Below, piece after piece: positions 6,238-63,889 of a stretch of 64,000 nucleotides of DNA (positions are counted from its first letter, which is position 1; every line of letters begins with the position of its first letter). The notes beneath the pieces were generated by a model. The model was not told where the DNA came from and did not search any database. It saw only the letters and a list, made by a program, of their open reading frames with translations. The DNA is taken from IMG/VR virus record IMGVR_UViG_3300028591_000087, positions 129,103-193,102 of that record, one strand, 5' to 3'. The translations under genes and the position numbers were made by a program. This stretch comes from a virus. Taxonomy: Duplodnaviria; Caudoviricetes.

Positions 6238-7421
6238 ACGTGAAAATTCTTAACAATGATCAACTTTTGCGCAGCCCGTGTAGTCGCTGTATAGAGCCAT
6301 CGCGCATGATCCTCTCTGGTTTCACCTTTTAAAAACTCTTCCAACACAATCACTTTATTAAATTCACTACCTTGTGATTTATGACAAGTAATTGCATATC
6401 CGTAATCAAACTCATGCGGATGAAAGATTTTTGGAATCTTTTTCCAATTACTATTGTATCCTCTTGTTACAGTTGTTTCACCTTCGGTTAATAGCTTATA
6501 GTCAACCTCAATTCCGCAGAATGTATCGGCATCATCATAGTCCGGCATAAAGTCAATTATAGGAGTACGTTTCATCCATGGATTTTCTTTTGGACCTTCT
6601 CCATATTCAATACCGATTAATTTTCCAGTTAATCCATTAACAAGAGCGTCACCATTCATATTGGTAATTTCCCAATCATTGCGCAAACATATAAGCCTGT
6701 CGCCTACAATAGGTTCTGGCGAATATTCATCAAGCCAGATTGTGCGACGCATTTTATCGTTAATCAATCGGCGTGTATCGTTCTTCCCGCATATTATCTG
6801 ATCCGCCCAAAAGAAGAAACCCTGTTTTAAAATTTCATTTCGATCTACTATTCGTACCTCTTGACCCATCTGATACTTTAACGGATTACCGGCACGAATA
6901 TCCATTGTAAGCTGAATGATTTCACTTTCCGCAGCCTGGCGCATAACTTCATCGAGAAATACGTGCGGGTGCACAAGTGCATCATTCATTTCAGCGGCGA
7001 CCGGAGGCAACTGACCTGGATCGCCAAGAGCAATAACATGGACTCCATAGAACAACAATTGATCCCACATTTTCTTAGGAAGCATAGAAATCTCATCAAC
7101 AACAATAAGACGATATGGAGCAAGTGTTTCAACAGGAACATGAATGAAAGTGCCATCATTACGAGGATGTGATTTATACAATAATTTATGTGCAGTCATT
7201 GCATTCTGACAACCTTTTGATCTAAGTACCTGCGCGGCTTTGCCTGTGTATGCAATATATGCCACTAACGCTGGATCTATATCTAATGCTGCAATGATAA
7301 AACGAATAAGGGTAGATTTTCCTACCCCTGCATAACCGGCAATTACTGTATAAGGTTCGTGGTTGTTATATCGTTCGATCGCTATCTTCAATCCTTGCTC
7401 TTGCTTTGCTGTAAGTATCAT
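6234..7421 (-). CDS. RecD/Dda-like SF1B helicase
   Basis: GYAGVGKST, VVDEISM, GDPGQLPPV, YAITCHKSQGSEF. Confidence 0.9.
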   Translation of the reverse strand: MILTAKQEQGLKIAIERYNNHEPYTVIAGYAGVGKSTLIRFIIAALDIDPALVAYIAYTGKAAQVLRSKGCQNAMTAHKLLYKSHPRNDGTFIHVPVETLAPYRLIVVDEISMLPKKMWDQLLFYGVHVIALGDPGQLPPVAAEMNDALVHPHVFLDEVMRQAAESEIIQLTMDIRAGNPLKYQMGQEVRIVDRNEILKQGFFFWADQIICGKNDTRRLINDKMRRTIWLDEYSPEPIVGDRLICLRNDWEITNMNGDALVNGLTGKLIGIEYGEGPKENPWMKRTPIIDFMPDYDDADTFCGIEVDYKLLTEGETTVTRGYNSNWKKIPKIFHPHEFDYGYAITCHKSQGSEFNKVIVLEEFLKGETREDHARWLYTATTRAAQKLIIVKNFHV

Positions 7422-7635
7422 TCTCTTTGTTCTCCAATACCCAATCTAAAATACTTCTTATTTGTTTTAATTCATCTATTGACAATTCTAACCACTGAAA
7501 GCTTTCTGGAATAGCGATGATTTTTATACCCATATCATGAGTCATTTCATCAACCTGTTGAACGATATCTCGTATTTGATTTATATCAAACTTCCACAGT
7601 GGATACTGTAATAAAATGTATTTTTTATCTTCCAT
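7366..7635 (-). CDS. Hypothetical protein
   Basis: ORF co-oriented within the operon. Confidence 0.55.
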   Translation of the reverse strand: MEDKKYILLQYPLWKFDINQIRDIVQQVDEMTHDMGIKIIAIPESFQWLELSIDELKQIRSILDWVLENKENDTYSKARARIEDSDRTI

Positions 7636-7661
7636 AATAATACCATAACTTTCTTATGTTG

Positions 7662-9398
7662 TCAAAAATCCCAAGATGATACTGTTTCGAAGAAATAATC
7701 AATAATCTTTATTTGCGGATATTCACCATTCCAGTCATTAATTTCGCAAGTACCAATAACTGTAATAGTTTTATCCAAAAGATTTTCATATTCTTCAATA
7801 TTACTACCAAACTTAATAATTGAAGTTTGTTTTGGTTTAAGATCTATTCTTAATGTGCCTTTTTGCAATAAATTAACCGCAATAGGATCACTTAGTTTTA
7901 TATGTTCAATTGCAACAATTGGTTCTGGAACGCCTTGACCCCACACATCTTTATAACGCGCAATATCAATAATTGTGGAATCAAAATCATCAGCCATTGT
8001 CCAAATAAAATCTACTTCGTATACTTTTTCAAAAATTGTTGTGCCGAAATCTTCTCTTACCTTATTTTTAAACCGCTCCAACCCATCAGGAGTAAAACTG
8101 ACGCCAAATGCCATAGCATGACCTTGAGCAAAAATGGCGCAGCCAGATTGAACAATATAATCACGCCAATTTCCAACCCCAGCAGTATTAAACCCTCTTC
8201 CGCTACCCAACCATCTAATTTCCCCAGTATCGCAATCCACGCATTGGTTAAGAATGAGGGTTGGCTTACTGTACGTAGCCATAATGCTGTTAGCAACAAG
8301 CCCAGTAATACCTCTAATAGGATCATCATCAGAAACTCCCTTGTTTTGAATAATAATTAATGGTTCATCAGCAAGTTTATATTTCTCAATTTTATCATAC
8401 ATTTCTTCAAGCAATTTCTTCTTTTCATCATCTTGATGACGTTTTACATTAGAAGCGTGTCGAACTGCTTGAACTACTCTAAGTTCTTCATCGTCTTTTT
8501 TAGCACCACGCTTATCACTTGGAATGAGTTGACCAGCTTTCCAAGAGAGCATAGATTCAAATACTAATAATTTATCTTCGTCACTACCAATACGGGTCAC
8601 CGCATTAATAAATGGAACAATATACCAGGCAACTGAATGCGGATTAAACTTACTTTTCATTGAAAATTCATTCTTATCCGCAAGATATACAAAGAATGGA
8701 TTGTTTACTTGCTTAAATCCTTCTGTTATATAATAATTAGTTTCTGGTGACCGCATATCCATCATATCACCGGTTAAACCGAGGGCAACGAGATCGAGGT
8801 AATATGATACGGCTCCTTCTTTTCGTTGTAGCCTATCCATACATTGTAAGGTCTTATATACCACACCAACTCCGGAGAGGGTTTTATTGGCATACCCAGA
8901 AAGCTGATTGTTGACAATAATCGCAGGATCGCCGGTAATATCTCTATCGGTTTCATGGTGGTCCAAAACGATGACATCCACTCCTCTCTCGGCAAGATTT
9001 TCATGTATCTCTCTTTCATTGCTGGAAGAATCTGGAGCGATAACCAATGTGCATCCTTCGGGAATATCATCAACGTTAATACCGTGAAGCTTCGCTTTGT
9101 GCAATCCATAATGCCAGTTTCGTTCCACTGTTGCTGGGGCGATGTCGTGCATATAGTTGAGCAACAGGGCTGAAGATGTGTATCCATCACAATCACTATC
9201 CACCTGTATATAAACTGTCTCTTGGCGCACGAGTGCTTTTAACATACGTCTCGCAGCCTGTTCTGTGTTATCTAAATCATAACAATCTAATTGATCATTT
9301 TCTGATGGATTCAAAAAATGCCAATCAGTATCTCTTAAATATAAAACACGGGATATAGGATCTAATCCTTCGCCGCCTTTTCTTAATTTAATCTCCAT
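7662..9398 (-). CDS. recJ: RecJ-like ssDNA exonuclease (DHH family)
   Basis: DSDCDG, LDHH, GSGRG, QGHAMAFG. Confidence 0.9.
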   Translation of the reverse strand: MEIKLRKGGEGLDPISRVLYLRDTDWHFLNPSENDQLDCYDLDNTEQAARRMLKALVRQETVYIQVDSDCDGYTSSALLLNYMHDIAPATVERNWHYGLHKAKLHGINVDDIPEGCTLVIAPDSSSNEREIHENLAERGVDVIVLDHHETDRDITGDPAIIVNNQLSGYANKTLSGVGVVYKTLQCMDRLQRKEGAVSYYLDLVALGLTGDMMDMRSPETNYYITEGFKQVNNPFFVYLADKNEFSMKSKFNPHSVAWYIVPFINAVTRIGSDEDKLLVFESMLSWKAGQLIPSDKRGAKKDDEELRVVQAVRHASNVKRHQDDEKKKLLEEMYDKIEKYKLADEPLIIIQNKGVSDDDPIRGITGLVANSIMATYSKPTLILNQCVDCDTGEIRWLGSGRGFNTAGVGNWRDYIVQSGCAIFAQGHAMAFGVSFTPDGLERFKNKVREDFGTTIFEKVYEVDFIWTMADDFDSTIIDIARYKDVWGQGVPEPIVAIEHIKLSDPIAVNLLQKGTLRIDLKPKQTSIIKFGSNIEEYENLLDKTITVIGTCEINDWNGEYPQIKIIDYFFETVSSWDF

Positions 9399-18073: not shown

Positions 18074-19285
18074 TCAACCGAATATAGAAGTTAGCGTGCA
18101 TTCCTTAGGATCTTTATCATCTCGAACACGCTTGAAGTAGAAGTGTCTGAGTGTATGATCTTCTTTGTGCTTCTCCATTCCCGCAAGTTCAACCACTTTA
18201 TAAATATACTTGAATGGCTCTTCTTTAAGTTCCTCTTGCATTTTTTCGGTTAAGCCAGAAGATATAGTACCAATTTCAACTACCATATTATTTTCGTCAT
18301 ATGCGCCAATGCGGATTGCTGTTGGCCACCCATAATAATAGGCTTTTGTTACTGGCATTACTTCATGTTCTAAATCTTTATAAACTGCACGTTTGTCAAT
18401 AGGAACTCGACGTTCGCTTATCAACTCTCTTGGCGCACCATTATCAGAGAATGGAGAATATTCTTCAATAACCCAATAAGGCCAAGACAACGCTGGATTA
18501 CTCATAGATTCAGTCAATGCTTCATCTATACGTCCATTCTCATCAAGAGCAGTATAGTTTGGTCCAATATTTAATTTACCAGAATAATACTTGGTAGGTT
18601 CACAGGTACCAATACAAATTGCATCACAAGAATCAGTTTTCTTTACTTTGATCGTGTCCCAAACTGGACGCTTACCAGGTGCATAATGCGCAGTTCTTTT
18701 CTTTAGAACCATGCCTTCTTCACCATTCTCAAGAGCAGAGATACAGGCATCTTGAATGTTTTCTTCTACACAACCTGCAAGTTCCATAAACGGATATGCG
18801 CATAAGTTATATTTCTTTACTATTGCTTCAAGAATCTTGTATCTATTATACGCACCAACTTCAATCAAAGACATTCCATTAAAGTAGATACAATCATGCA
18901 TATAATAGTGCAATAGTCCATAGCCTTGCTGTTGACGCTCTATTGCTTTATCAGGAAGTGATCCCATAATAGGAGTTACATCTTTTGATTCTTTGCCCGG
19001 ATAATAAATTTCACCGATAATGATGGTACCCGCGGGCAAAACATTCAAAACGTTCATAATATGTGGAACATTTGCGCCCTTTTCCGCAAGTATACCAGTT
19101 TTCTTAGAAACAGTTCTACTCCATAAATATGAAGCATCATCTGTTTTTTCAAATTGATACCAATAACCATCCTTTTTTAATTGTGCAAAGTAATCACCAG
19201 ATGCACAAATAGAGGGAAAGAGATCTTCTTTTCCCTCGGGAATCTTATTGATTTTCATAGGTTCTATACAAAATGGCTTACTCAT
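18074..19285 (-). CDS. ATP-dependent DNA ligase
   Basis: QLKKDGY (KxDG), IIGEIY, EGMVLK, IKVKK, C-terminal OB with LRH..FKRVRDDK. Confidence 0.88.
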   Translation of the reverse strand: MSKPFCIEPMKINKIPEGKEDLFPSICASGDYFAQLKKDGYWYQFEKTDDASYLWSRTVSKKTGILAEKGANVPHIMNVLNVLPAGTIIIGEIYYPGKESKDVTPIMGSLPDKAIERQQQGYGLLHYYMHDCIYFNGMSLIEVGAYNRYKILEAIVKKYNLCAYPFMELAGCVEENIQDACISALENGEEGMVLKKRTAHYAPGKRPVWDTIKVKKTDSCDAICIGTCEPTKYYSGKLNIGPNYTALDENGRIDEALTESMSNPALSWPYWVIEEYSPFSDNGAPRELISERRVPIDKRAVYKDLEHEVMPVTKAYYYGWPTAIRIGAYDENNMVVEIGTISSGLTEKMQEELKEEPFKYIYKVVELAGMEKHKEDHTLRHFYFKRVRDDKDPKECTLTSIFG

Positions 19286-19286
19286 C

Positions 19287-21692
19287 TTATACCCTCACTG
19301 CACTCACTAAGCTATTATCTTTAATCAACTTAATCGTTGAACTTGTTCTTGATCCAAGAGAAATGTCAGACACATTTACACATATAGATCCAGTGTTTCC
19401 GCACAGAAGAAGGCTTCCAGTGCTTTCAAGCCCACCGACGCCCGTGACGATCTTGCCTGAGTGATTAACTTTAAGGCCCTTACCAGATCTATTCTGCTTA
19501 GTGAATTCATTAACCATAACTCTCTTCCCTGTTCCGTCGCTACAGCCAATGAAAACCTGCCCGATGGCATCCTTGCTATTACTGTTCCCATCTTGTCCGA
19601 GACTGATACCCACGGTTGCTTCATCGTTATCCGCAAGTCTGATTCCTTGAACTCCAACAGAACATCTTCCAGTTGCTCCAACTGTCGCTCCATCAAATCG
19701 AATCCCCATACCTTCCTTAGTTAAAATCAAAATGTCTGTGTTTGATCCGACCCATACTCCAATAATAGAGTCATCTTCTCTAAGCTTGATCGCTTGAACT
19801 CCACCTTTACGTTTTGTACCCACGTATTCGGATACCAGCGTCTTCTTGACCAAACCTCGCTTAGTAACGAACCACACATACTGTCCAGCATTTTCTGTCC
19901 TCTCGGCTGAGGTAATTGCTACCACTTGTTCCGCAGGTGCCATCTCCACTAACGTAGAAATCGCTGTTCCACGGGAAGTTTGTGTTCCTTCCGGAATTGT
20001 GTCGACACCAACTCGGTAAACTTTACCTTGTGTAGTGAAGGCGAGTAATACATCTACCGTATTAGTCTCAATTGTAGCTAAGGTGATATCATCCTGTGTC
20101 TTTACTCCCTTACCATTACGTTTCTGAACTTTGAACTGTTTTTTCGGTATGCGCTTAATATTACCAGCTTCTGTTGCTACAATCACAACATCTTCCGGCA
20201 CTATTTGCGCAACCTCTTTTTCTTCTTTTGTGACTTCAATATTAGTTACAGTAGTTCTACGTTCGTCACCAAACTTATTCTTAAATGCTTCAAGTTCTGC
20301 AATAAGATCTTTTTTAAAGACTTCTTCATCACTCAAACGAGTAACTATTAAAGCCTTTTCCGCATTTTTATCTTTTCTCTCTTGTTCAATAGCCAATTTC
20401 TCCATATTGGCTAATCTACTTAAAGTCATCGCAAGAATTGCTTCTGCTTGTTCATCAGTGAAATAATATCTCTTTTTTAACTGAACGTGCGCTTCTGCTT
20501 TATTCTTAGATCCTTTAATTAATTTAATGACATTATCAATATCATCAAGTGCCATACATAGACCATCAAGAATATGAATACGTTGTTCCAATTTCTTTAG
20601 ATCATATTCATTTTTTCTGCGGAATACATCTTCTTGATGCTCTACATAGTATTTTATGATATCAACCAATGTTAATTGTTTCGGCACTTTATTCACAAGT
20701 GCTACCATATTAACACTAAATGTAGTTTCCAGATCAGTTAATGCATATAATTTATTAGCAATTACATCTGCATTAACACCCTTTTCCAGTTCCACAACGA
20801 ACCGTAATCCTTCTCTATTTGATTCGTCAAGTATTTCTCTAATGCCATCCAATTGCTTGGTTTCACAGAGTTCATCAATTGTTGTAACCAACTGTTCTTT
20901 AGACACCTTATAGGGAATTGAATCGAATACCAGTCTATCACGTTTGTCTGGAGTGACATCGACATGATAAAGTCCTCGTACTCGCACACGACCTTTACCG
21001 CTTGTATAGATATTTCTAAGTTCCTTTTCATTGATAATACAACCACCGGTGGGGAAATCTGGTGCCTGAAGTATCTCTGCAAGCGATACATTGTCCGTCG
21101 CAGTTCCCCTAATGTATGCGATAATTCCATCCATGACTTGTCGAAGATTATGAGGGGCAAAATTGCATGCCATTGCGACAGCAATCCCAGTTGTTCCATT
21201 GCAGAGGAGATTTGGGAAAAGTCCTGGAAGATATACCGGTTCAGATCCAGTTTCGTCGAAGTTAGGGATCCAGTCAACAGTGTCTTTTTTGATGCCATCA
21301 AGTGTTGCCTCACTTATTTTGCTTAATCTACATTCAGTATATCTCATCGCTGCGGGAGGATCTCCATCACGACTGCCGTTATTTCCATGGAACTCAATGA
21401 GAGGGTACCGCATATTCCACGGTTGGCTTGACCCTACCAATGCGCCATATATTGAACTATCACCATGCGGATGATACTTACCCATTGTATCGCCAACAGG
21501 TCTCGCGCACTTAACATATTGTTTATCAGACTTATATCCACTTTCCTGCATACACCAGAGAATGCGTCGCATAACTGGCTTTAAACCATCTTCTACTGCG
21601 GGAATCGCACGATCTGTGATAACAGAAAGTGAATAATCAAGAAATGATTGTTCAACCTCTTGGACTATTGGGGCTTGAATAATATTATCCAC
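19287..21692 (-). CDS. gyrA: DNA gyrase subunit A
   Basis: DGLKPVMRR, YHPHGDSS, AAMRYTE, GyrA-box-like QKRNGKG, beta-pinwheel repeats. Confidence 0.93.
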   Translation of the reverse strand: MDNIIQAPIVQEVEQSFLDYSLSVITDRAIPAVEDGLKPVMRRILWCMQESGYKSDKQYVKCARPVGDTMGKYHPHGDSSIYGALVGSSQPWNMRYPLIEFHGNNGSRDGDPPAAMRYTECRLSKISEATLDGIKKDTVDWIPNFDETGSEPVYLPGLFPNLLCNGTTGIAVAMACNFAPHNLRQVMDGIIAYIRGTATDNVSLAEILQAPDFPTGGCIINEKELRNIYTSGKGRVRVRGLYHVDVTPDKRDRLVFDSIPYKVSKEQLVTTIDELCETKQLDGIREILDESNREGLRFVVELEKGVNADVIANKLYALTDLETTFSVNMVALVNKVPKQLTLVDIIKYYVEHQEDVFRRKNEYDLKKLEQRIHILDGLCMALDDIDNVIKLIKGSKNKAEAHVQLKKRYYFTDEQAEAILAMTLSRLANMEKLAIEQERKDKNAEKALIVTRLSDEEVFKKDLIAELEAFKNKFGDERRTTVTNIEVTKEEKEVAQIVPEDVVIVATEAGNIKRIPKKQFKVQKRNGKGVKTQDDITLATIETNTVDVLLAFTTQGKVYRVGVDTIPEGTQTSRGTAISTLVEMAPAEQVVAITSAERTENAGQYVWFVTKRGLVKKTLVSEYVGTKRKGGVQAIKLREDDSIIGVWVGSNTDILILTKEGMGIRFDGATVGATGRCSVGVQGIRLADNDEATVGISLGQDGNSNSKDAIGQVFIGCSDGTGKRVMVNEFTKQNRSGKGLKVNHSGKIVTGVGGLESTGSLLLCGNTGSICVNVSDISLGSRTSSTIKLIKDNSLVSAVRV

Positions 21693-47817: not shown

Positions 47818-49213
47818 CTAAGTTATCTCCCAATCTATCATTTATTAACAAAATTGTTCCAACTAAATCACTAAAGATCTTATTTGGTCCATATGCTTTT
47901 AAACAATCTATTATACCATGTTCTCTATAATACTTAAATATTGTAGAATATTTTGCTTTAAAGAACTTGCAAACGTTTTCTAATGGCATAAATGGATCTT
48001 TACCATATTCAGTTTGTGCGCCAAGACATCCATGTAAACAACATTCATTTATTGGACAAGCATCACATATTGGAGTTGTGGTCAAATTATTGCCCATCCA
48101 AATCTTTGTTGCTAAAATAGGATTAACTGCTTTAACTCCAGAAATTTCATCGTCTTCAACAGTGAAATAACCATATAAATATTGGTTATAAGCTGTTCTA
48201 TGACAAGGACAAATTGCTAAATCGCCTAACCGCACTGTTAAATGATCGGTTATTGTGCAACCAAGGAATGACTTACCAGTACCAATAAACCATGGGAAAT
48301 ATCCATTAGATTCATTAAATTCTCTCTTTAAGTGCGCGTTAGATATATAGTCAGCAAACTCTTGTGGATCATTGTTACATTTTTCTACCATCCAATTATT
48401 CATTAGCATTTTCAAAAATTCACAATAATCTTTAATAGATTCATCTGTCCAGTTTCCATCTCTCACTTCAAGCATCATAATAGAATCTGATGAATAATTA
48501 TATTTCTTTAAAAATTCCATCCACCATTGATAGTTTTCTTTCCAATACTTAACATTTTGTGAGGATACCATTGGATGGAATAAAAAGTCATTTACTCTTG
48601 CAAATGCGCCAACTCTATCATAAAATTCATCAGTATATTTGTTTTCTTTGTCGTTACGAGGGCGACCTGCTTCATCAACAATTTTACCATCAACTGATAC
48701 TGAAATACCAAGATAACAATCAAATAATTTATATTTATCTATGTACTGTTGCATTTTCTGTAATGCAATTTCTGAATTTACAAAACTACAATTTGATGGC
48801 AATGTGATACAATCAATCAAGACACCTTTTTCTAAGTATTTTAAGATCATATCCAATATATCCCATCCAAATTGAGACTGCCAAATATCTCCACTAAAAA
48901 TAGATACTTCTGGTATATGATAATTATTTATCATTAAATATTTTAATAATAATTCTAAGTTATGTAATATTAACTCAGGTTTGTTTACTTCTTTTGGATA
49001 TAATTCAGGATGTTTTTGTAAATAACAATATTCACACTTCTGATTACAAGTAGATGTTATATATAATTCTAAATTTGAGTCTAATCTTAATGACCTATCA
49101 TCAAGAAAATGAGTTGTAATATATTTCCAAGGATTGAAAAATCTATAATCTAACATCGTTTGCAATAGTTTGTCTTGTTCTAACTGATATTGATCTTTAT
49201 TTATATTTCCCAT
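47798..49213 (-). CDS. Radical SAM enzyme with SPASM domain
   Basis: CNQKCEYC, SVDG, GC..HLTVRLGDLAICPCHR, CDACPINECCLHGC..C. Confidence 0.9.
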   Translation of the reverse strand: MGNINKDQYQLEQDKLLQTMLDYRFFNPWKYITTHFLDDRSLRLDSNLELYITSTCNQKCEYCYLQKHPELYPKEVNKPELILHNLELLLKYLMINNYHIPEVSIFSGDIWQSQFGWDILDMILKYLEKGVLIDCITLPSNCSFVNSEIALQKMQQYIDKYKLFDCYLGISVSVDGKIVDEAGRPRNDKENKYTDEFYDRVGAFARVNDFLFHPMVSSQNVKYWKENYQWWMEFLKKYNYSSDSIMMLEVRDGNWTDESIKDYCEFLKMLMNNWMVEKCNNDPQEFADYISNAHLKREFNESNGYFPWFIGTGKSFLGCTITDHLTVRLGDLAICPCHRTAYNQYLYGYFTVEDDEISGVKAVNPILATKIWMGNNLTTTPICDACPINECCLHGCLGAQTEYGKDPFMPLENVCKFFKAKYSTIFKYYREHGIIDCLKAYGPNKIFSDLVGTILLINDRLGDNLDELGAV

Positions 49214-51359: not shown

Positions 51360-53138
51360 TTATCTATGATAATTATCAGTATACGTTTTAATTAATTCAT
51401 ATAAAGTATCACTGTTAAGATACTCTTGCATTGGTTCAATATAAATTTTTTGTAACAAATAAGCAGGAGATTGACATTTTACAATATCTTCTTCTGTAAT
51501 TTTATAATCAAATATCTCGTTAAAAATATGTAATAGTTCATCAAAAGAATATTTATTAGAATTTACATATCTTGCGAGTTGTATATATTTTTTATATGGT
51601 CTATATAATTCTGTATTTAATACATCATCAGGAATATTATCGTTTACTGCATCAATATTTAATAACTGTGTAAATGGACCAAATGATTGCTCACGAGACT
51701 CCATAAAAATATGATGCCACAATAACAGGCTATCAATAGTTCTAAATACTATCTGATCACTATTATATGCTAATATAGTATTAATATAATCAGAGAACTT
51801 TATAGGTTTGTGTTCATATAAATTGTTTAAAGTATTATATAAGCCTTCGATAGCAGTAATACATTTTGGAATTGAGATATCATCTTGGTCATAATTTCTA
51901 CCATTTAAGATAGAATATGTATGATAATCATCATTAGGTACGATTAAAGTATTTACCGCATATAAATTATCCATTAATGAAGTATTAATGTAATAGATTT
52001 TAATATTTAAATATTTACTTAATCTCTTATAATATTCAATTAAGTCTTCATTTGAACTTTCTTTCGGCATATAACCATTATGATTATATGTATCAACATA
52101 TTCGATGCTATTAAAAAATTCAGCTGGGAAAATTGTGCCATTAATACTATTTCCATATACACCGCGCATAAACTCTTCACTTACACTCTTGTATGGAGTT
52201 TGTGTTTGACAAGCCCAATTCTTACCACTAAATGATTGAATACCTTGATATAATTCTGTTAATACACGTTCTGCTGCAATCTCAAATACTGGGAATGATC
52301 CAAAATTAATTCTAATTGAACCATCTTTATTATCAATTAATAAGGACATCATAACAGGAATGTTATAATTATAAGAAAGATCAAACATATAGAACTTGTA
52401 TCCAAGTGCTTTAATCTTATTGATAACTTCTTTGAGATGAACATCTTCGATTTTTTCAAGATCAATAGCATAATGTGGTGCCTTGATATCTCGGTATAGA
52501 ATACGATCAGCTGCATCACGTTCAACTAATTCTGAAATAGCTTGAACTAATGCTTCATTTAATGTGTTGCCGGCAGCCATACCATTTGATCTTGTGATTA
52601 ACATTAACATGCGTGGATCAATGTAACTAACATCAGAATGATCTGCAATATTGTAAAGCGGAACTCCAACATATGTGCCATTAGTAATGAACTTAATCAT
52701 AGATCGCAATAGTTTAGGACTATATCCAGAAACTTTTTTGAAATAAACTTCAGATCTTGGATTCTTGAATAATTCTTCATAAGATAAAATTCTTTCATCT
52801 GGAGAAAAATAATAACCATGTTCAGTCTGGTTTATTTCCATAAACTTACGGGTCCATAGCGGATTAGTTAAAAACATAATTTTATTACAGAAACGTTCAT
52901 AAAGTTCCGCATGACCACTAGCTAAAGCATATTCTTTTGTCATGCCTTTACCATTTGCGCCACCGAAATATATTCCATCTTTAAATAATTCAACTCTGCA
53001 AAACCAAGTCCCAGCTTCAGATTCTAATACTGGCTATGCATCTCTTAATTCAAATTTATGTTCTTTAAAAAAATCTTTAACTATTTGTACCGTCTGATTT
53101 GGATCTCTTTCTTTGTAATGAGTATTTAAACTTACCAT
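51360..53138 (-). CDS. YcaO-family enzyme (TAG at codon 35 read as Gln)
   Basis: HYKERDP, ANGKGMTKEYALASGHAELYER, SNGMAAGNTLNEALVQAISELVERD, AAERVLTELYQG; GGAGG RBS at 53138. Confidence 0.9.
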
Positions 53139-53164: not shown

Positions 53165-53253
53165 TGGCAGCCCGCCTGGGAGTCGAACCCAGTCCGTTTG
53201 CTTCAGAGGCCGCGGTTTTAGAGACCGCCCGTGCAGCCGCACACCTACGGGCT
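53165..53253 (-). tRNA. Amber suppressor tRNA (CUA), probably Gln
   Basis: GCGGT CTCTAAA ACCGC; T arm CTGGG TTCGACT CCCAG; acceptor AGCCCGT/GCGGGCT-G-CCA. Confidence 0.85.
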
Positions 53254-57529: not shown

Positions 57530-58028
57530 ATAGGCAAGCGTGCTAAGATCTCGTCATAGCGGGTTGCGCTGCCTAAAGAGCGTAGCGTAAAACCTCAAAC
57601 TAGCCATCGTCGCGTCCAGCTGAACCGCATGTTTTCTGCCTTGAACGGACACTCACCGTAGGCAAGGAAGGTGGACCCAGGGCATTGCACCCAGCCCGTG
57701 GCAGTTTTTACTCTTACTGGAGAACAAATGGGCAAATGCAACCGGTGTTCGAGACCATTTATACGATCTCGGCATTTGCCTATGTAGATCGTGCTCATTA
57801 AACACAACCCTACTTCCTAATGCTTATTGCAATGCTGTGCATCCACTTTCACAAGAGGAATTAGCTCCCCGTTTATACCCGCAGATATAATCCGGATCGA
57901 CACTTTACTATTTCACCCATAGCTAGGCTGTCTTTGAAACAGTGCTCGCCTCAGAGGTTTCCCGCCGTTACGCATGTTATTAGCTCACCCACGGCTAACG
58001 GGCAAGAGTTGAGAGGTTCCATGCTCCT
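57530..58028 (-). ncRNA. Candidate structured ncRNA(s)
   Basis: About 500 nt, GC-elevated, no credible ORF, multiple hairpins, between tRNAs. Confidence 0.4.
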
Positions 58029-62223: not shown

Positions 62224-62245
62224 AAATTTTCTCCTTTTTCTCAAG

Positions 62246-62316
62246 CAAGGGTACAGGGACTCGAACCCCGATCTATGGTTTTGGAGACCATTATTCTACC
62301 ATTGAACTATACCCCT
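62246..62316 (-). tRNA. tRNA-Trp(CCA)
   Basis: ATGGT CTCCAAA ACCAT. Confidence 0.92.
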
Positions 62317-62405
62317 ATGGTGACGGGTTGCCTACGGGTTATGCGCTGGCTTTTACTCTCACGGCCGCACTGGCCACATACGCACCTTTGAGCTTCCCGC
62401 CCGTC

Positions 62406-62480
62406 TGGCTGGCGATCCTGGACTCGAACCAGGAACTTCGGAGTCAGAGTCCGACACGTTGCCAATTACACCAATCGCCA
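62406..62480 (-). tRNA. tRNA-Gln(CUG)
   Basis: TCGGA CTCTGAC TCCGA, U1:A72. Confidence 0.9.
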
Positions 62481-62580
62481 TCAAAAATCCGCCGACCACC
62501 CTATTGGAACGCTCTCACCGTGCGGGGCGTCTATTGTGTATTTGCTAGCAGAATTTGAACCATTAACTATGGCGGATAAG

Positions 62581-62654
62581 TCGGGATGACAGGATTCGAA
62601 CCTGCGGCTTCTTGGTCCCTAACCAAGCGGTCTACCAAACTGAGCTACATCCCG
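62581..62654 (-). tRNA. tRNA-Pro(AGG)
   Basis: CTTGG TTAGGGA CCAAG. Confidence 0.88.
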
Positions 62655-62661
62655 AAATAAA

Positions 62662-62731
62662 TGGCACGATGGGAGTCGAACCCACTAACTCAGATTTTGC
62701 AGACCTGCCCCCGACCGACGAGGTTCGTGCC
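62662..62731 (-). tRNA. tRNA-Cys(GCA), atypical D arm and discriminator
   Basis: CAGGT CTGCAAA ATCTG. Confidence 0.7.
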
Positions 62732-62783
62732 GATGTAAATTATTGTTTTCGCTTCATATACCATCACATTCTTTCTTATTTGC

Positions 62784-62858
62784 TGGTCCCCGTGGCGGGA
62801 TTCGAACCCACGATGCACGGATTAAAAGTCCGTTGCCATACCACTTGGCTACACGAGG
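62784..62858 (-). tRNA. tRNA-Lys(UUU)
   Basis: ACGGA CTTTTAA TCCGT. Confidence 0.9.
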
Positions 62859-62865
62859 ATAAAAG

Positions 62866-62948
62866 TGCGCCGGGGTGGACTCGAACCACCGGTGTTTCTT
62901 TGTGGCGGATTTACAGTCCGCTGCCCTCGCCGCTAGGCATACCGACGC
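62866..62948 (-). tRNA. tRNA-Tyr(GUA)
   Basis: GCGGA CTGTAAA TCCGC, long variable arm. Confidence 0.9.
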
Positions 62949-62954
62949 ATATAA

Positions 62955-63130
62955 GGTACCCTGGGTGTGCTATTACGCCAAAAAGACTAGCCATTACCCA
63001 ACGAGGACATTTACATAGGTCGGCTTATTGATCTTGCGTTGCCTATGAGATGTTGCGTTGCGCCCCTCAATTGGAGCGGATCCTACTCCTTAGCTGATGG
63101 CTGCTTTGAAGCCTACAGTCCCAGGTGGTT
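62955..63130 (-). ncRNA. 23S rRNA H43/H44 (uL11-binding domain) mimic with about 100-nt insertion
   Basis: CTGGGACTGTAGGCTTCAAAGCAGCCATCAGCTAAGGAG...TGGCGTAATAGCACACCCAG. Confidence 0.65.
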
Positions 63131-63285
63131 CTCTTTCACGTATAGAACCTCGCTAAGCACGTCACAGATTTTCCGCGTAGCAACGGTTATGCTGTGCTGA
63201 TAGGTTTGATTTCTGGAGCTCAACCTAACAAACATCTCCGAGACCCTGTCTACACCGCCTTTCAGCGGTAACTGCTACTATGGTC

Positions 63286-63361
63286 TGGTCCGGGATGACG
63301 GGCTCGAACCGCCGACTTCCTGCTTGTAAGGCAGGCGCTCTCCCAGCTGAGCTAATCCCGG
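63286..63361 (-). tRNA. tRNA-Val(UAC)
   Basis: CCTGC CTTACAA GCAGG. Confidence 0.92.
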
Positions 63362-63633
63362 ATAAAATGCAGCCTAAGCCGCAAACAGCCTATTATAACG
63401 GGCCTGGTAACCTAGACCGCCCCACACCGGAATCGAACCGGTAATGACCAACCATGAGGGGAAAAGAAAACCTATTTGCGGAATCTTCACCCTTTTCCTC
63501 CATACCACCTATGTCAAGCATAGTTTGGGAGTTTGCCACAAATTCGCAGTATCTCTCTGCCTTGATACGTCTGTCCGCAAATTCAGATGCGGCCGATCGC
63601 TCCGCACATTAAAGGCGCTGTCACCCACCTAAG

Positions 63634-63707
63634 TGCCCCACCAGGGACTCGAACCCTGAACCCCCGGTTTAAGAGACCGGTACTCTAGCCAGTTGAGTTA
63701 GTGAGGC
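63634..63707 (-). tRNA. tRNA-Lys(CUU)
   Basis: CCGGT CTCTTAA ACCGG. Confidence 0.9.
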
Positions 63708-63816
63708 ATATTTTGTATCATATTTGGAAATTGAAGGATTTTCTTTAAGAACTTTTGTCCTTCCCTCATCTTCCATAAATATAATATCAAAAATTTTATA
63801 AGTTTTCAAGTTACTG

Positions 63817-63889
63817 TCGGGCAGGGTGGATTCGAACCACCGACCAGCGGTTTATAAGACCGCCACTCTAACCACTGAGTTACTGCCCG
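63817..63889 (-). tRNA. tRNA-Ile(UAU)
   Basis: GCGGT CTTATAA ACCGC. Confidence 0.88.

Follow-up and report, generated by a model that had tools for sequence, protein, structure and literature searches.

The question raised by this locus is why a phage genome carries, among its tRNA genes, a short stretch resembling the GTPase-associated centre (GAC) of 23S rRNA. The window, i.e., the whole stretch of 64,000 nt that was analysed, makes up the final 64 kb of a virus record of 193,102 bp (G000 below). In E. coli, 23S rRNA nucleotides 1051–1108 (top of H42, H43 and H44) are the minimal fragment that binds uL11 and thiostrepton, and the initial annotation had described a stand-alone mimic of this fragment on the minus strand of the window, with compensatory changes that implied a selected fold. 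Every sequence detail claimed for this minus-strand element could be read in the DNA.

Layout of the element and its setting in a tRNA array

According to the covariance-model bounds, the whole RNA (170 nt) occupies window positions 62958–63127 on the minus strand, to which all element coordinates below refer, and it scores 93.8 bits with the family model R1. With R2, a covariance model from which the window copy, its paralog and their subgroup had been left out, the window copy reached 83.2 bits (E 1.5e-20), the score of the paralog was 89.1 bits, and the R2 scan of the 64-kb window gave no second match. The RNA is closed by a 6-bp stem, P1 (5′ strand CCUGGG, 63120–63125; 3′ strand CCCAGG, 62960–62965), which replaces the top of H42 and whose 3′ strand ends 11 nt from tRNA-Tyr. 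A single unpaired A separates the 5′ strand of P1 from the H43-like hairpin CUG-UA-GGC-UUCAAAGCA-GCC-AU-CAG (63094–63118), which corresponds base for base to E. coli 23S 1057–1081 and to positions 1098–1122 of the Rfam LSU model. Its GGC/GCC stem is that of rRNA, and seven of the nine bases of the UUAGAAGCA-type loop are identical in the window copy; in UUCAAAGCA, the 1067 equivalent (63108) is C, as had been annotated, and, in addition, the 1068 equivalent (63107) is A. At the base of the hairpin, CUG/CAG stands where E. coli has AUG/CAU, and this compensatory replacement was likewise seen in the sequence.

The hairpin is followed by the CUAAG turn (63089–63093), in which the covarying 1082–1086 pair, C-G in the window copy, closes UAA, and by GAGU (63085–63088), equivalent to 1087–1090 and without variation wherever the search pattern left it free. 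In the window copy, the G1087 equivalent (63088) pairs with the C1102 equivalent (62967), and the A1088 equivalent is the partner of the U1060 equivalent (63115). The spacer of about 100 nt in the initial annotation proved to be an insertion into H44, namely, a lineage-specific insert of 102 nt in the 5′ strand of this helix (62983–63084), closed by its own 5-bp helix (63080–63084/62983–62987) and containing an inner hairpin, CAUAGG/CCUAUG, common to the window copy and the paralog. A UUUG linker (62979–62982), which is a hallmark of the family and is not present in rRNA, leads from the insert helix to the H44-like hairpin GCGUAAUAGC followed by ACA (62966–62978, equivalent to 1091–1103); GCGUAAUAGC itself (62969–62978) matches rRNA exactly, and the 1101 equivalent is A where rRNA has U. 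The partners of the predicted tertiary contacts, i.e., U1060-A1088, 1082–1086 and G1071/C1072 with the H44 stem, are all found in the window copy. The minimum free energy fold of the whole intergenic region was no better than that of shuffled sequences (z −0.29), so the evidence for the fold is comparative rather than thermodynamic. The open reading frames over the element were rejected as spurious, since they are open only when running through tRNA genes.

The annotated siting among tRNA genes was borne out: the element lies between tRNA-Val(UAC) (63286–63361, minus strand) and tRNA-Tyr (62865–62948, minus strand), within an array whose 36 tRNA genes all have this orientation. From tRNA-Val to tRNA-Tyr, neither a promoter-like nor a terminator-like site was detected, and the end of the element is only 9 nt from tRNA-Tyr, a proximity that suggests release by RNase P together with the enzymes that process tRNA 3′ ends. 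There is also no flanking rRNA, as had been stated: the bacterial LSU model of Rfam covers positions 1098–1144 only, with 14 bits for the window copy and 24.1 bits for the paralog, and the genome contains no other rRNA. Apart from this sub-match, no Rfam family matched the element at E values up to 10.

A model search showed that G000 holds exactly two copies. The diverged paralog (G000 18374–18528, locus L001) is approximately 80% identical to the window copy, with indels that exclude a shared reading frame, and its P1 stem is CUUGGG/CCCAAG, a compensatory change of C-G to U-A. The paralog, too, is preceded by a tRNA-Val(UAC); it belongs to the second tRNA array of the genome, in which the upstream gene order is the same. 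The paralogous arrays (G000 about 17.6–19.8 kb and window 62245–63889) form a diverged segmental duplication of about 80% identity, and the order common to both is Ile(UAU), Lys(CUU), Val(UAC), a companion RNA, the GAC mimic, Lys(UUU), Cys, Pro(AGG) and Trp. The companion segment, located between tRNA-Val and the mimic (window 63128–63285 and L001 1556–1688, both minus strand), has about 110 nt kept in the paralog. It contains a hairpin that is invariant in both paralogs, AGGUUGAGCUCCAGAAAUCAAACCU (AGGUUGA/UCAAACCU), with a CUCC loop able to pair with GGAG further upstream (a possible pseudoknot), as well as an outer stem, GUAGC/GCUAC. The segment matches no Rfam family and, among 241 loci, is confined to G000 and absent from 238 others.

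Other small RNA genes were noted in the same surroundings. A cow-rumen-3 RNA of full length (Rfam RF03083, 108.4 bits) was found at window 57670–57810 on the minus strand, in the same tRNA array, and a tmRNA (Rfam, 102.5 bits) lies beside the second array at L001 2531–2863 (minus strand), i.e., G000 about 19504–19836; the carrier L120 also encodes a tmRNA. ARAGORN detected a tRNA with a CUA anticodon (amber suppressor) at window 53165–53253, minus strand. A CUA tRNA is present in 15 other member loci and a UCA tRNA in two.

A phage RNA family and its conserved core

The search for phage homologs, proposed in the initial annotation, was productive. Pattern scans of viral contigs yielded well over 140 distinct relatives, and every one of them has an insertion at this position of H44. 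The first gapped pattern (11 H43 bases, a 95–125-nt gap and 10 H44 bases) gave 17 further viral contigs with the same layout, other gap lengths gave 31 more, and patterns for the 5′ half only or the 3′ half only gave more than 118 stretches each; among the 5′-half matches listed, there was no true rRNA gene, and all carried an insert after GAGU. The insert length across the family ranges from 27 to approximately 400 nt. L002, the sole match of an exact 20-mer scan of viral contigs, was rejected as a chance match in a GC-rich coding region, as were L019 and L052 as chance matches of the gapped pattern. In 185,579 prokaryote genomes, the gapped pattern found 12 stretches, four of which are family members, all on MAG contigs; the family is almost absent from these prokaryote genomes and is phage-only. 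Rfam 15 contains no family for the element, and no description of it was found in the full-text literature.

The window copy is a member of this family, both in its structure (covarying P1, GAC shell, GAGU, helix-closed insert, UUUG and GCACA) and in its context (phage genome, tRNA array, strand of the tRNAs). A tRNA was present in the fetched locus for 101 of 142 unique elements, and all 91 elements located within 1.5 kb of a tRNA share its strand. Some members are not near tRNAs but stand immediately upstream of ORFs, and the copies of XacN1 and GAP32 adjoin protein genes. At the same time, no protein family occurred within 4 kb in more than 13 of 221 loci; the downstream ORFs vary from phage to phage, and no conserved downstream gene was found. 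A single copy is the rule among the carriers, with two in a few of them. The two-copy carriers include L124 (3847–4085 and 4100–4335) and G001 (48158–48321 and 51429–51584), with copies in tandem or 3 kb apart. In L185 and L199, an unrelated hairpin, GAUUGC-UUUAU-GCAAUC, takes the place of the H43 loop; both variants retain the UAA turn, GAGU and the 3′ half.

A minority of the family, four of 146 unique members (L066, L071, L073 and L120), carries a sarcin-ricin loop (SRL) hairpin inside the insert. These members are long (about 400 nt; the L073 member spans 7300–7720), with the hairpin about 225–270 nt after H43, and one example, obtained by direct reading, is CCCCA-ACAGUACGAGAGGAACC-UGGGG; an Rfam local search of one SRL-bearing member returned nothing. 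The remaining 97% of unique members, including the window copy, have no SRL.

Several carriers are cultured phages. Unannotated copies were confirmed by R1 in Pseudomonas phages pf16 (KU873925 29415–29605), Milchi and UNO-G1W1, as well as in Xanthomonas phage XacN1, Aeromonas phage 4_4572 and Cronobacter phage GAP32. Additionally, blastn points to copies in Pseudomonas phage Astolliot, Serratia phage BF, six Erwinia pEa_SNUABM phages, Erwinia phage Kaldavass, and Xanthomonas phages XbC2 and XaC1; used as the blastn query against cultured phages, the window element itself gave no match, and a more typical member succeeded. The shell is nearly identical whether the phage infects Pseudomonas, Xanthomonas, Aeromonas or Enterobacterales or is an uncultured one, and the uncultured phages come from many different samples. 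Since hosts of cultured carriers are tractable (pf16 in P. putida, GAP32 in C. sakazakii and XacN1 in X. citri), direct testing is possible. In Milchi (PQ464597.1 79028–79159) and UNO-G1W1 (PP551948.2 70501–70608), opposite-strand CDSs annotated as “hypothetical protein” lie over the RNA and are probably spurious. Paenibacillus phage Pd_22F (MZ092003.1 83965–84017) was rejected as a non-member: its stretch, with GCUCACUGGUCGA, is a true 23S fragment without an insert and may represent host DNA in the record.

Covariation in this family far exceeded that of shuffled controls. For 17 members, RNAalifold recovered the rRNA fold together with the insert-closing helix; 92.9% of alignment cells were paired, and the covariation was 0.642 against 0.172 in shuffled alignments, with none of 500 shuffles reaching it. 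For 99 distinct members fitted to R1, the values were 91.2% and 0.589 against 0.148 (0/500), and slid partners gave only 0.06–0.16. In the latter alignment, both-sided changes occurred at all eight P1 pairs and all five pairs of the insert helix, the H43 base pairs 1057–1081 and 1058–1080 covaried, and the 1082–1086 pair appeared as U-A in 42 members, C-G in 35 and A-U in 11. The G1087-C1102 pair was GC in 95 of the 99 members. The stem 1062–1064/1074–1076 is invariant in alignment A5, and relatives found by the 3′ half alone show compensatory changes there, C1064-G1074 to A-U or G-C and G1062-C1076 to A-U. With family covariation in P1, the H43 base, 1082–1086 and the insert-closing stem, the initial claim of a stand-alone, selected H43/H44 mimic is strongly supported.

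Nucleotide frequencies in H43 were taken from 78 members picked regardless of H43. The most constant positions were C1079 (C 100%), G1059 (G 99%), G1062 and G1063 (G 96–97%), U1060 (U 96%), U1066 (U 96%), A1077 (A 96%), G1071 (G 95%) and C1072 (C 95%), and lower values were obtained for A1067 (A 83%; G, C or U in the remaining 17%), A1070 (A 82%) and G1068 (G 76%). A1088 was kept in the member sets that did not force it, and the pairs G1091-C1100 and C1092-G1099 were invariant or nearly so. In members picked regardless of H44, the H44 loop was GUA-N-N-A, with A or G at 1096 and any base at 1097; A1095 and A1098 are conserved in the family. In the UUUG linker (alignments A2, A3 and A6), the first two U residues are invariant and the third nearly so, and the last position is G or A. 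So, judged from these alignments, the tertiary core is as strongly conserved at the nucleotide level as it is in rRNA, and the tips, 1067 and 1096–1097, are relaxed.

Relation to known RNAs

The mimic resembles the 23S GAC in its three-way layout, in its H43 and H44 loops, which are the same save for 1067 and 1068 in the window copy, and in the U1060-A1088 and 1082–1086 pairs and the 1071/1072 triples with 1091–1100 and 1092–1099. It differs from the GAC in being free-standing and phage-encoded, with a generic covarying stem in place of the H42 part; in having a 27–400-nt arm between 1090 and 1091, followed by UUUG; in having A for U1101; and in leaving the tips 1067, 1068, 1096 and 1097 free to vary. 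Compared with an rRNA gene, the window copy has no 23S continuity, and its H44 is interrupted by the 102-nt insert and UUUG. The shared hallmarks (insert helix, UUUG, A1101 and generic P1) point to one origin of the family rather than to repeated capture of rRNA.

Ribosomal-protein leaders that act in cis are known to imitate rRNA sites, and the mRNA leaders of this type (L10/rplJ, RF00557) are also off-ribosome RNAs imitating a site in this rRNA domain. However, the L10 leader is cis-regulatory, stands before a ribosomal-protein operon and copies the L10 site in H42, whereas the mimic copies H43/H44, has no Rfam match, is flanked by tRNAs and lies in a phage without a uL10 or uL11 gene or a credible bL12 gene. 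In its position among phage tRNA genes and its presumed release by tRNA processing, the mimic is similar to T4 rnaC/rnaD, GOLLD, ROOL and YrlA-type Y RNAs, but no sequence or structure relation connects them: T4 rnaC/rnaD scored below 8 bits with R1 and were rejected as relatives, and GOLLD, ROOL and YrlA gave no match at the element. If the proposed activity is true, the mimic would join the tRNAs, tmRNA and Y-like RNAs of phage tRNA arrays.

Possible function and competing explanations

We propose that the element would be a small stable RNA gene, co-transcribed with the phage tRNAs and freed by tRNA processing. Its RNA is predicted to fold as a replica of the GAC, with H43 and H44 locked by rRNA-type tertiary contacts, a generic closing stem and a lineage-specific arm inserted into H44. 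Most plausibly, it would act in trans, off the ribosome, by binding host uL11 via the uL11 C-terminal domain, and the ribosome would then have a competitor for uL11 or another binder of the site. A trans-acting decoy for host uL11 or another such binder is our best explanation, held tentatively and with somewhat less than even confidence; binding of uL11 is suggested by the fold together with the conservation of U1060-A1088. The L11 C-terminal domain contacts the U1060-A1088 pair and binds the isolated rRNA domain tightly (PMC2175356). Preservation of the core and of this pair, with the tips relaxed, favours the uL11 C-terminal domain over thiostrepton or the factor-contacting tips. The conservation of the shell across diverse hosts argues for a partner that is equally universal and conserved, and, since no phage gene travels with the RNA, this partner would be host-encoded. 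Of 50 carrier phage records, 29 with a completeness of 90% or more, none had a uL11 gene above the Pfam cut-off, and G000 has no uL10 or uL11 gene and only a sub-threshold bL12. The initial annotation had also listed uL10 among the candidate targets. Binding of uL10 needs the H42 sequence, and the H42-like stem here has no conserved sequence, which makes uL10 an unlikely target.

The downstream physiology of such a decoy is speculative. Ribosomes without uL11 cannot activate RelA, as in relC mutants, and depletion of uL11 could result in the loss of RelA activation and hence of the stringent response. It could also weaken the action of RF1 at UAG; RF1 touches the N-terminal domain of uL11 (PMC3677378). 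Suppressor tRNAs were seen in no more than 17 of the 215 member loci. A general link with stop-codon recoding is therefore absent, and an effect on RF1 cannot be the general role of the RNA; for this amber-suppressor-carrying phage, weakening of RF1 is a suggestive idea. A six-frame ORF-length measure did not discriminate stop-codon recoding. In a joint reading, which we regard as improbable when taken as a whole, large phages would make a replica of the uL11 site, with its dose tied to tRNA output, and would strip host uL11 from ribosomes or withhold it; RelA-dependent (p)ppGpp synthesis, which the flood of phage tRNAs might trigger, would be silenced; in TAG-recoded phages such as this one, RF1 at UAG would be weakened in favour of the suppressor; and the rare SRL members would be fuller imitations of the factor site.

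Some observations fit a uL11 decoy poorly. The SRL copy in about 3% of members is not needed by uL11 and points to GTPases or toxins, and A1095 and A1098, which lie in the region modified by Tre23, are conserved too. We know of no nameable uL11-binding role for the UUUG linker, A1101 or the insert helix. Moreover, free uL11 is scarce, and ribosome-bound uL11 may exchange too slowly within one infection.

These observations lead to the competing explanations, of which a decoy or bait for attackers of the rRNA site comes next, although we consider it unlikely. Here, the RNA would absorb the attack of an ADP-ribosyltransferase such as Tre23, of a defence nuclease or glycosidase acting on rRNA, or of thiopeptides, and the ribosomes would stay active. 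Tre23 ADP-ribosylates 23S H44 at 1095–1098 (PMC8661411), and A1095 and A1098 are conserved in the family; the sarcin-ricin loop, the other classic toxin target, is present in a minority of members. However, 1096 and 1097 vary, and A1067, which is essential for thiostrepton (PMC2175356), is replaced in 17% of members, by C in the window copy. Toxins and defence systems are patchy, yet the shell is almost invariant across very different hosts and samples. To our knowledge, no anti-phage system targeting the GAC has been described. Somewhat less likely again is an off-ribosome platform on which the RNA, with or without uL11, would trap, activate or redirect EF-G, EF-Tu, IF2, RF3 or RelA, the SRL-bearing members being its complete form. 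The GAC and the SRL together make up the factor-binding site, both are present in the four SRL carriers, and EF-G reportedly binds isolated oligonucleotides of both domains (Munishkin and Wool 1997). Nevertheless, 97% of unique members do without the SRL, the factor-contacting tips 1067 and 1096–1097 are the least conserved positions of the shell, and trapped elongation factors would harm phage translation too.

Explanations without mimicry or without selection of a free RNA fare worse. The constant same-strand association with tRNA arrays would also be expected of a module of the tRNA polycistron, i.e., a folding insulator or a nuclease entry or block site that reuses a stable rRNA fold, but a spacer needs no invariant loops or tertiary partners, which are kept here at rRNA-like levels, and some members are found away from tRNAs, before ORFs or beside protein genes (XacN1 and GAP32); this makes such a module very unlikely. 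It is extremely improbable that the element is a piece of host 23S rRNA in decay or a ribosomal-protein leader that acts in cis, as the L10 leader does. The two stretches identical to rRNA and the sub-threshold LSU match are what such an origin would leave, but the insert helix, UUUG linker, A1101 and generic P1 are absent from rRNA, covariation is strong, two diverged copies are kept without rRNA flanks, Rfam gave neither an L10_leader match nor any other at E values up to 10, and no gene lies downstream of the window copy, nor is one conserved in the family. At the level of sequence, both the remnant and the leader are excluded.

A trans-acting decoy for uL11 or another reader of the site would have implications beyond this phage. 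A widespread, virus-encoded and probably trans-acting replica of a ribosomal functional centre is absent from Rfam 15 and from the searchable literature, and, if uL11 or another site reader is bound, it would represent a new phage route to take over or protect translation. Furthermore, the family provides a natural mutational map of the GTPase-associated centre, in which the tertiary core and U1060-A1088 are fixed, and 1067, 1096–1097 and the H44 insertion site are free.

The use of the same insertion site in a complete rRNA was seen in a Micrarchaeota 23S gene (L150 3960–4200; MAG JAGGVH010000038), which is full length (1895 bits to LSU_rRNA_archaea; 3969 nt against the 2987-position model). 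Like the mimic, it is interrupted after the UAA turn and before GCGUAAUAGC by a helix-closed stretch of about 110 nt; unlike in the mimic, this insertion is part of a full rRNA gene, lacks UUUG and GCACA, and is dissimilar in sequence. The H44 insertion site thus tolerates an extra arm in a real ribosome.
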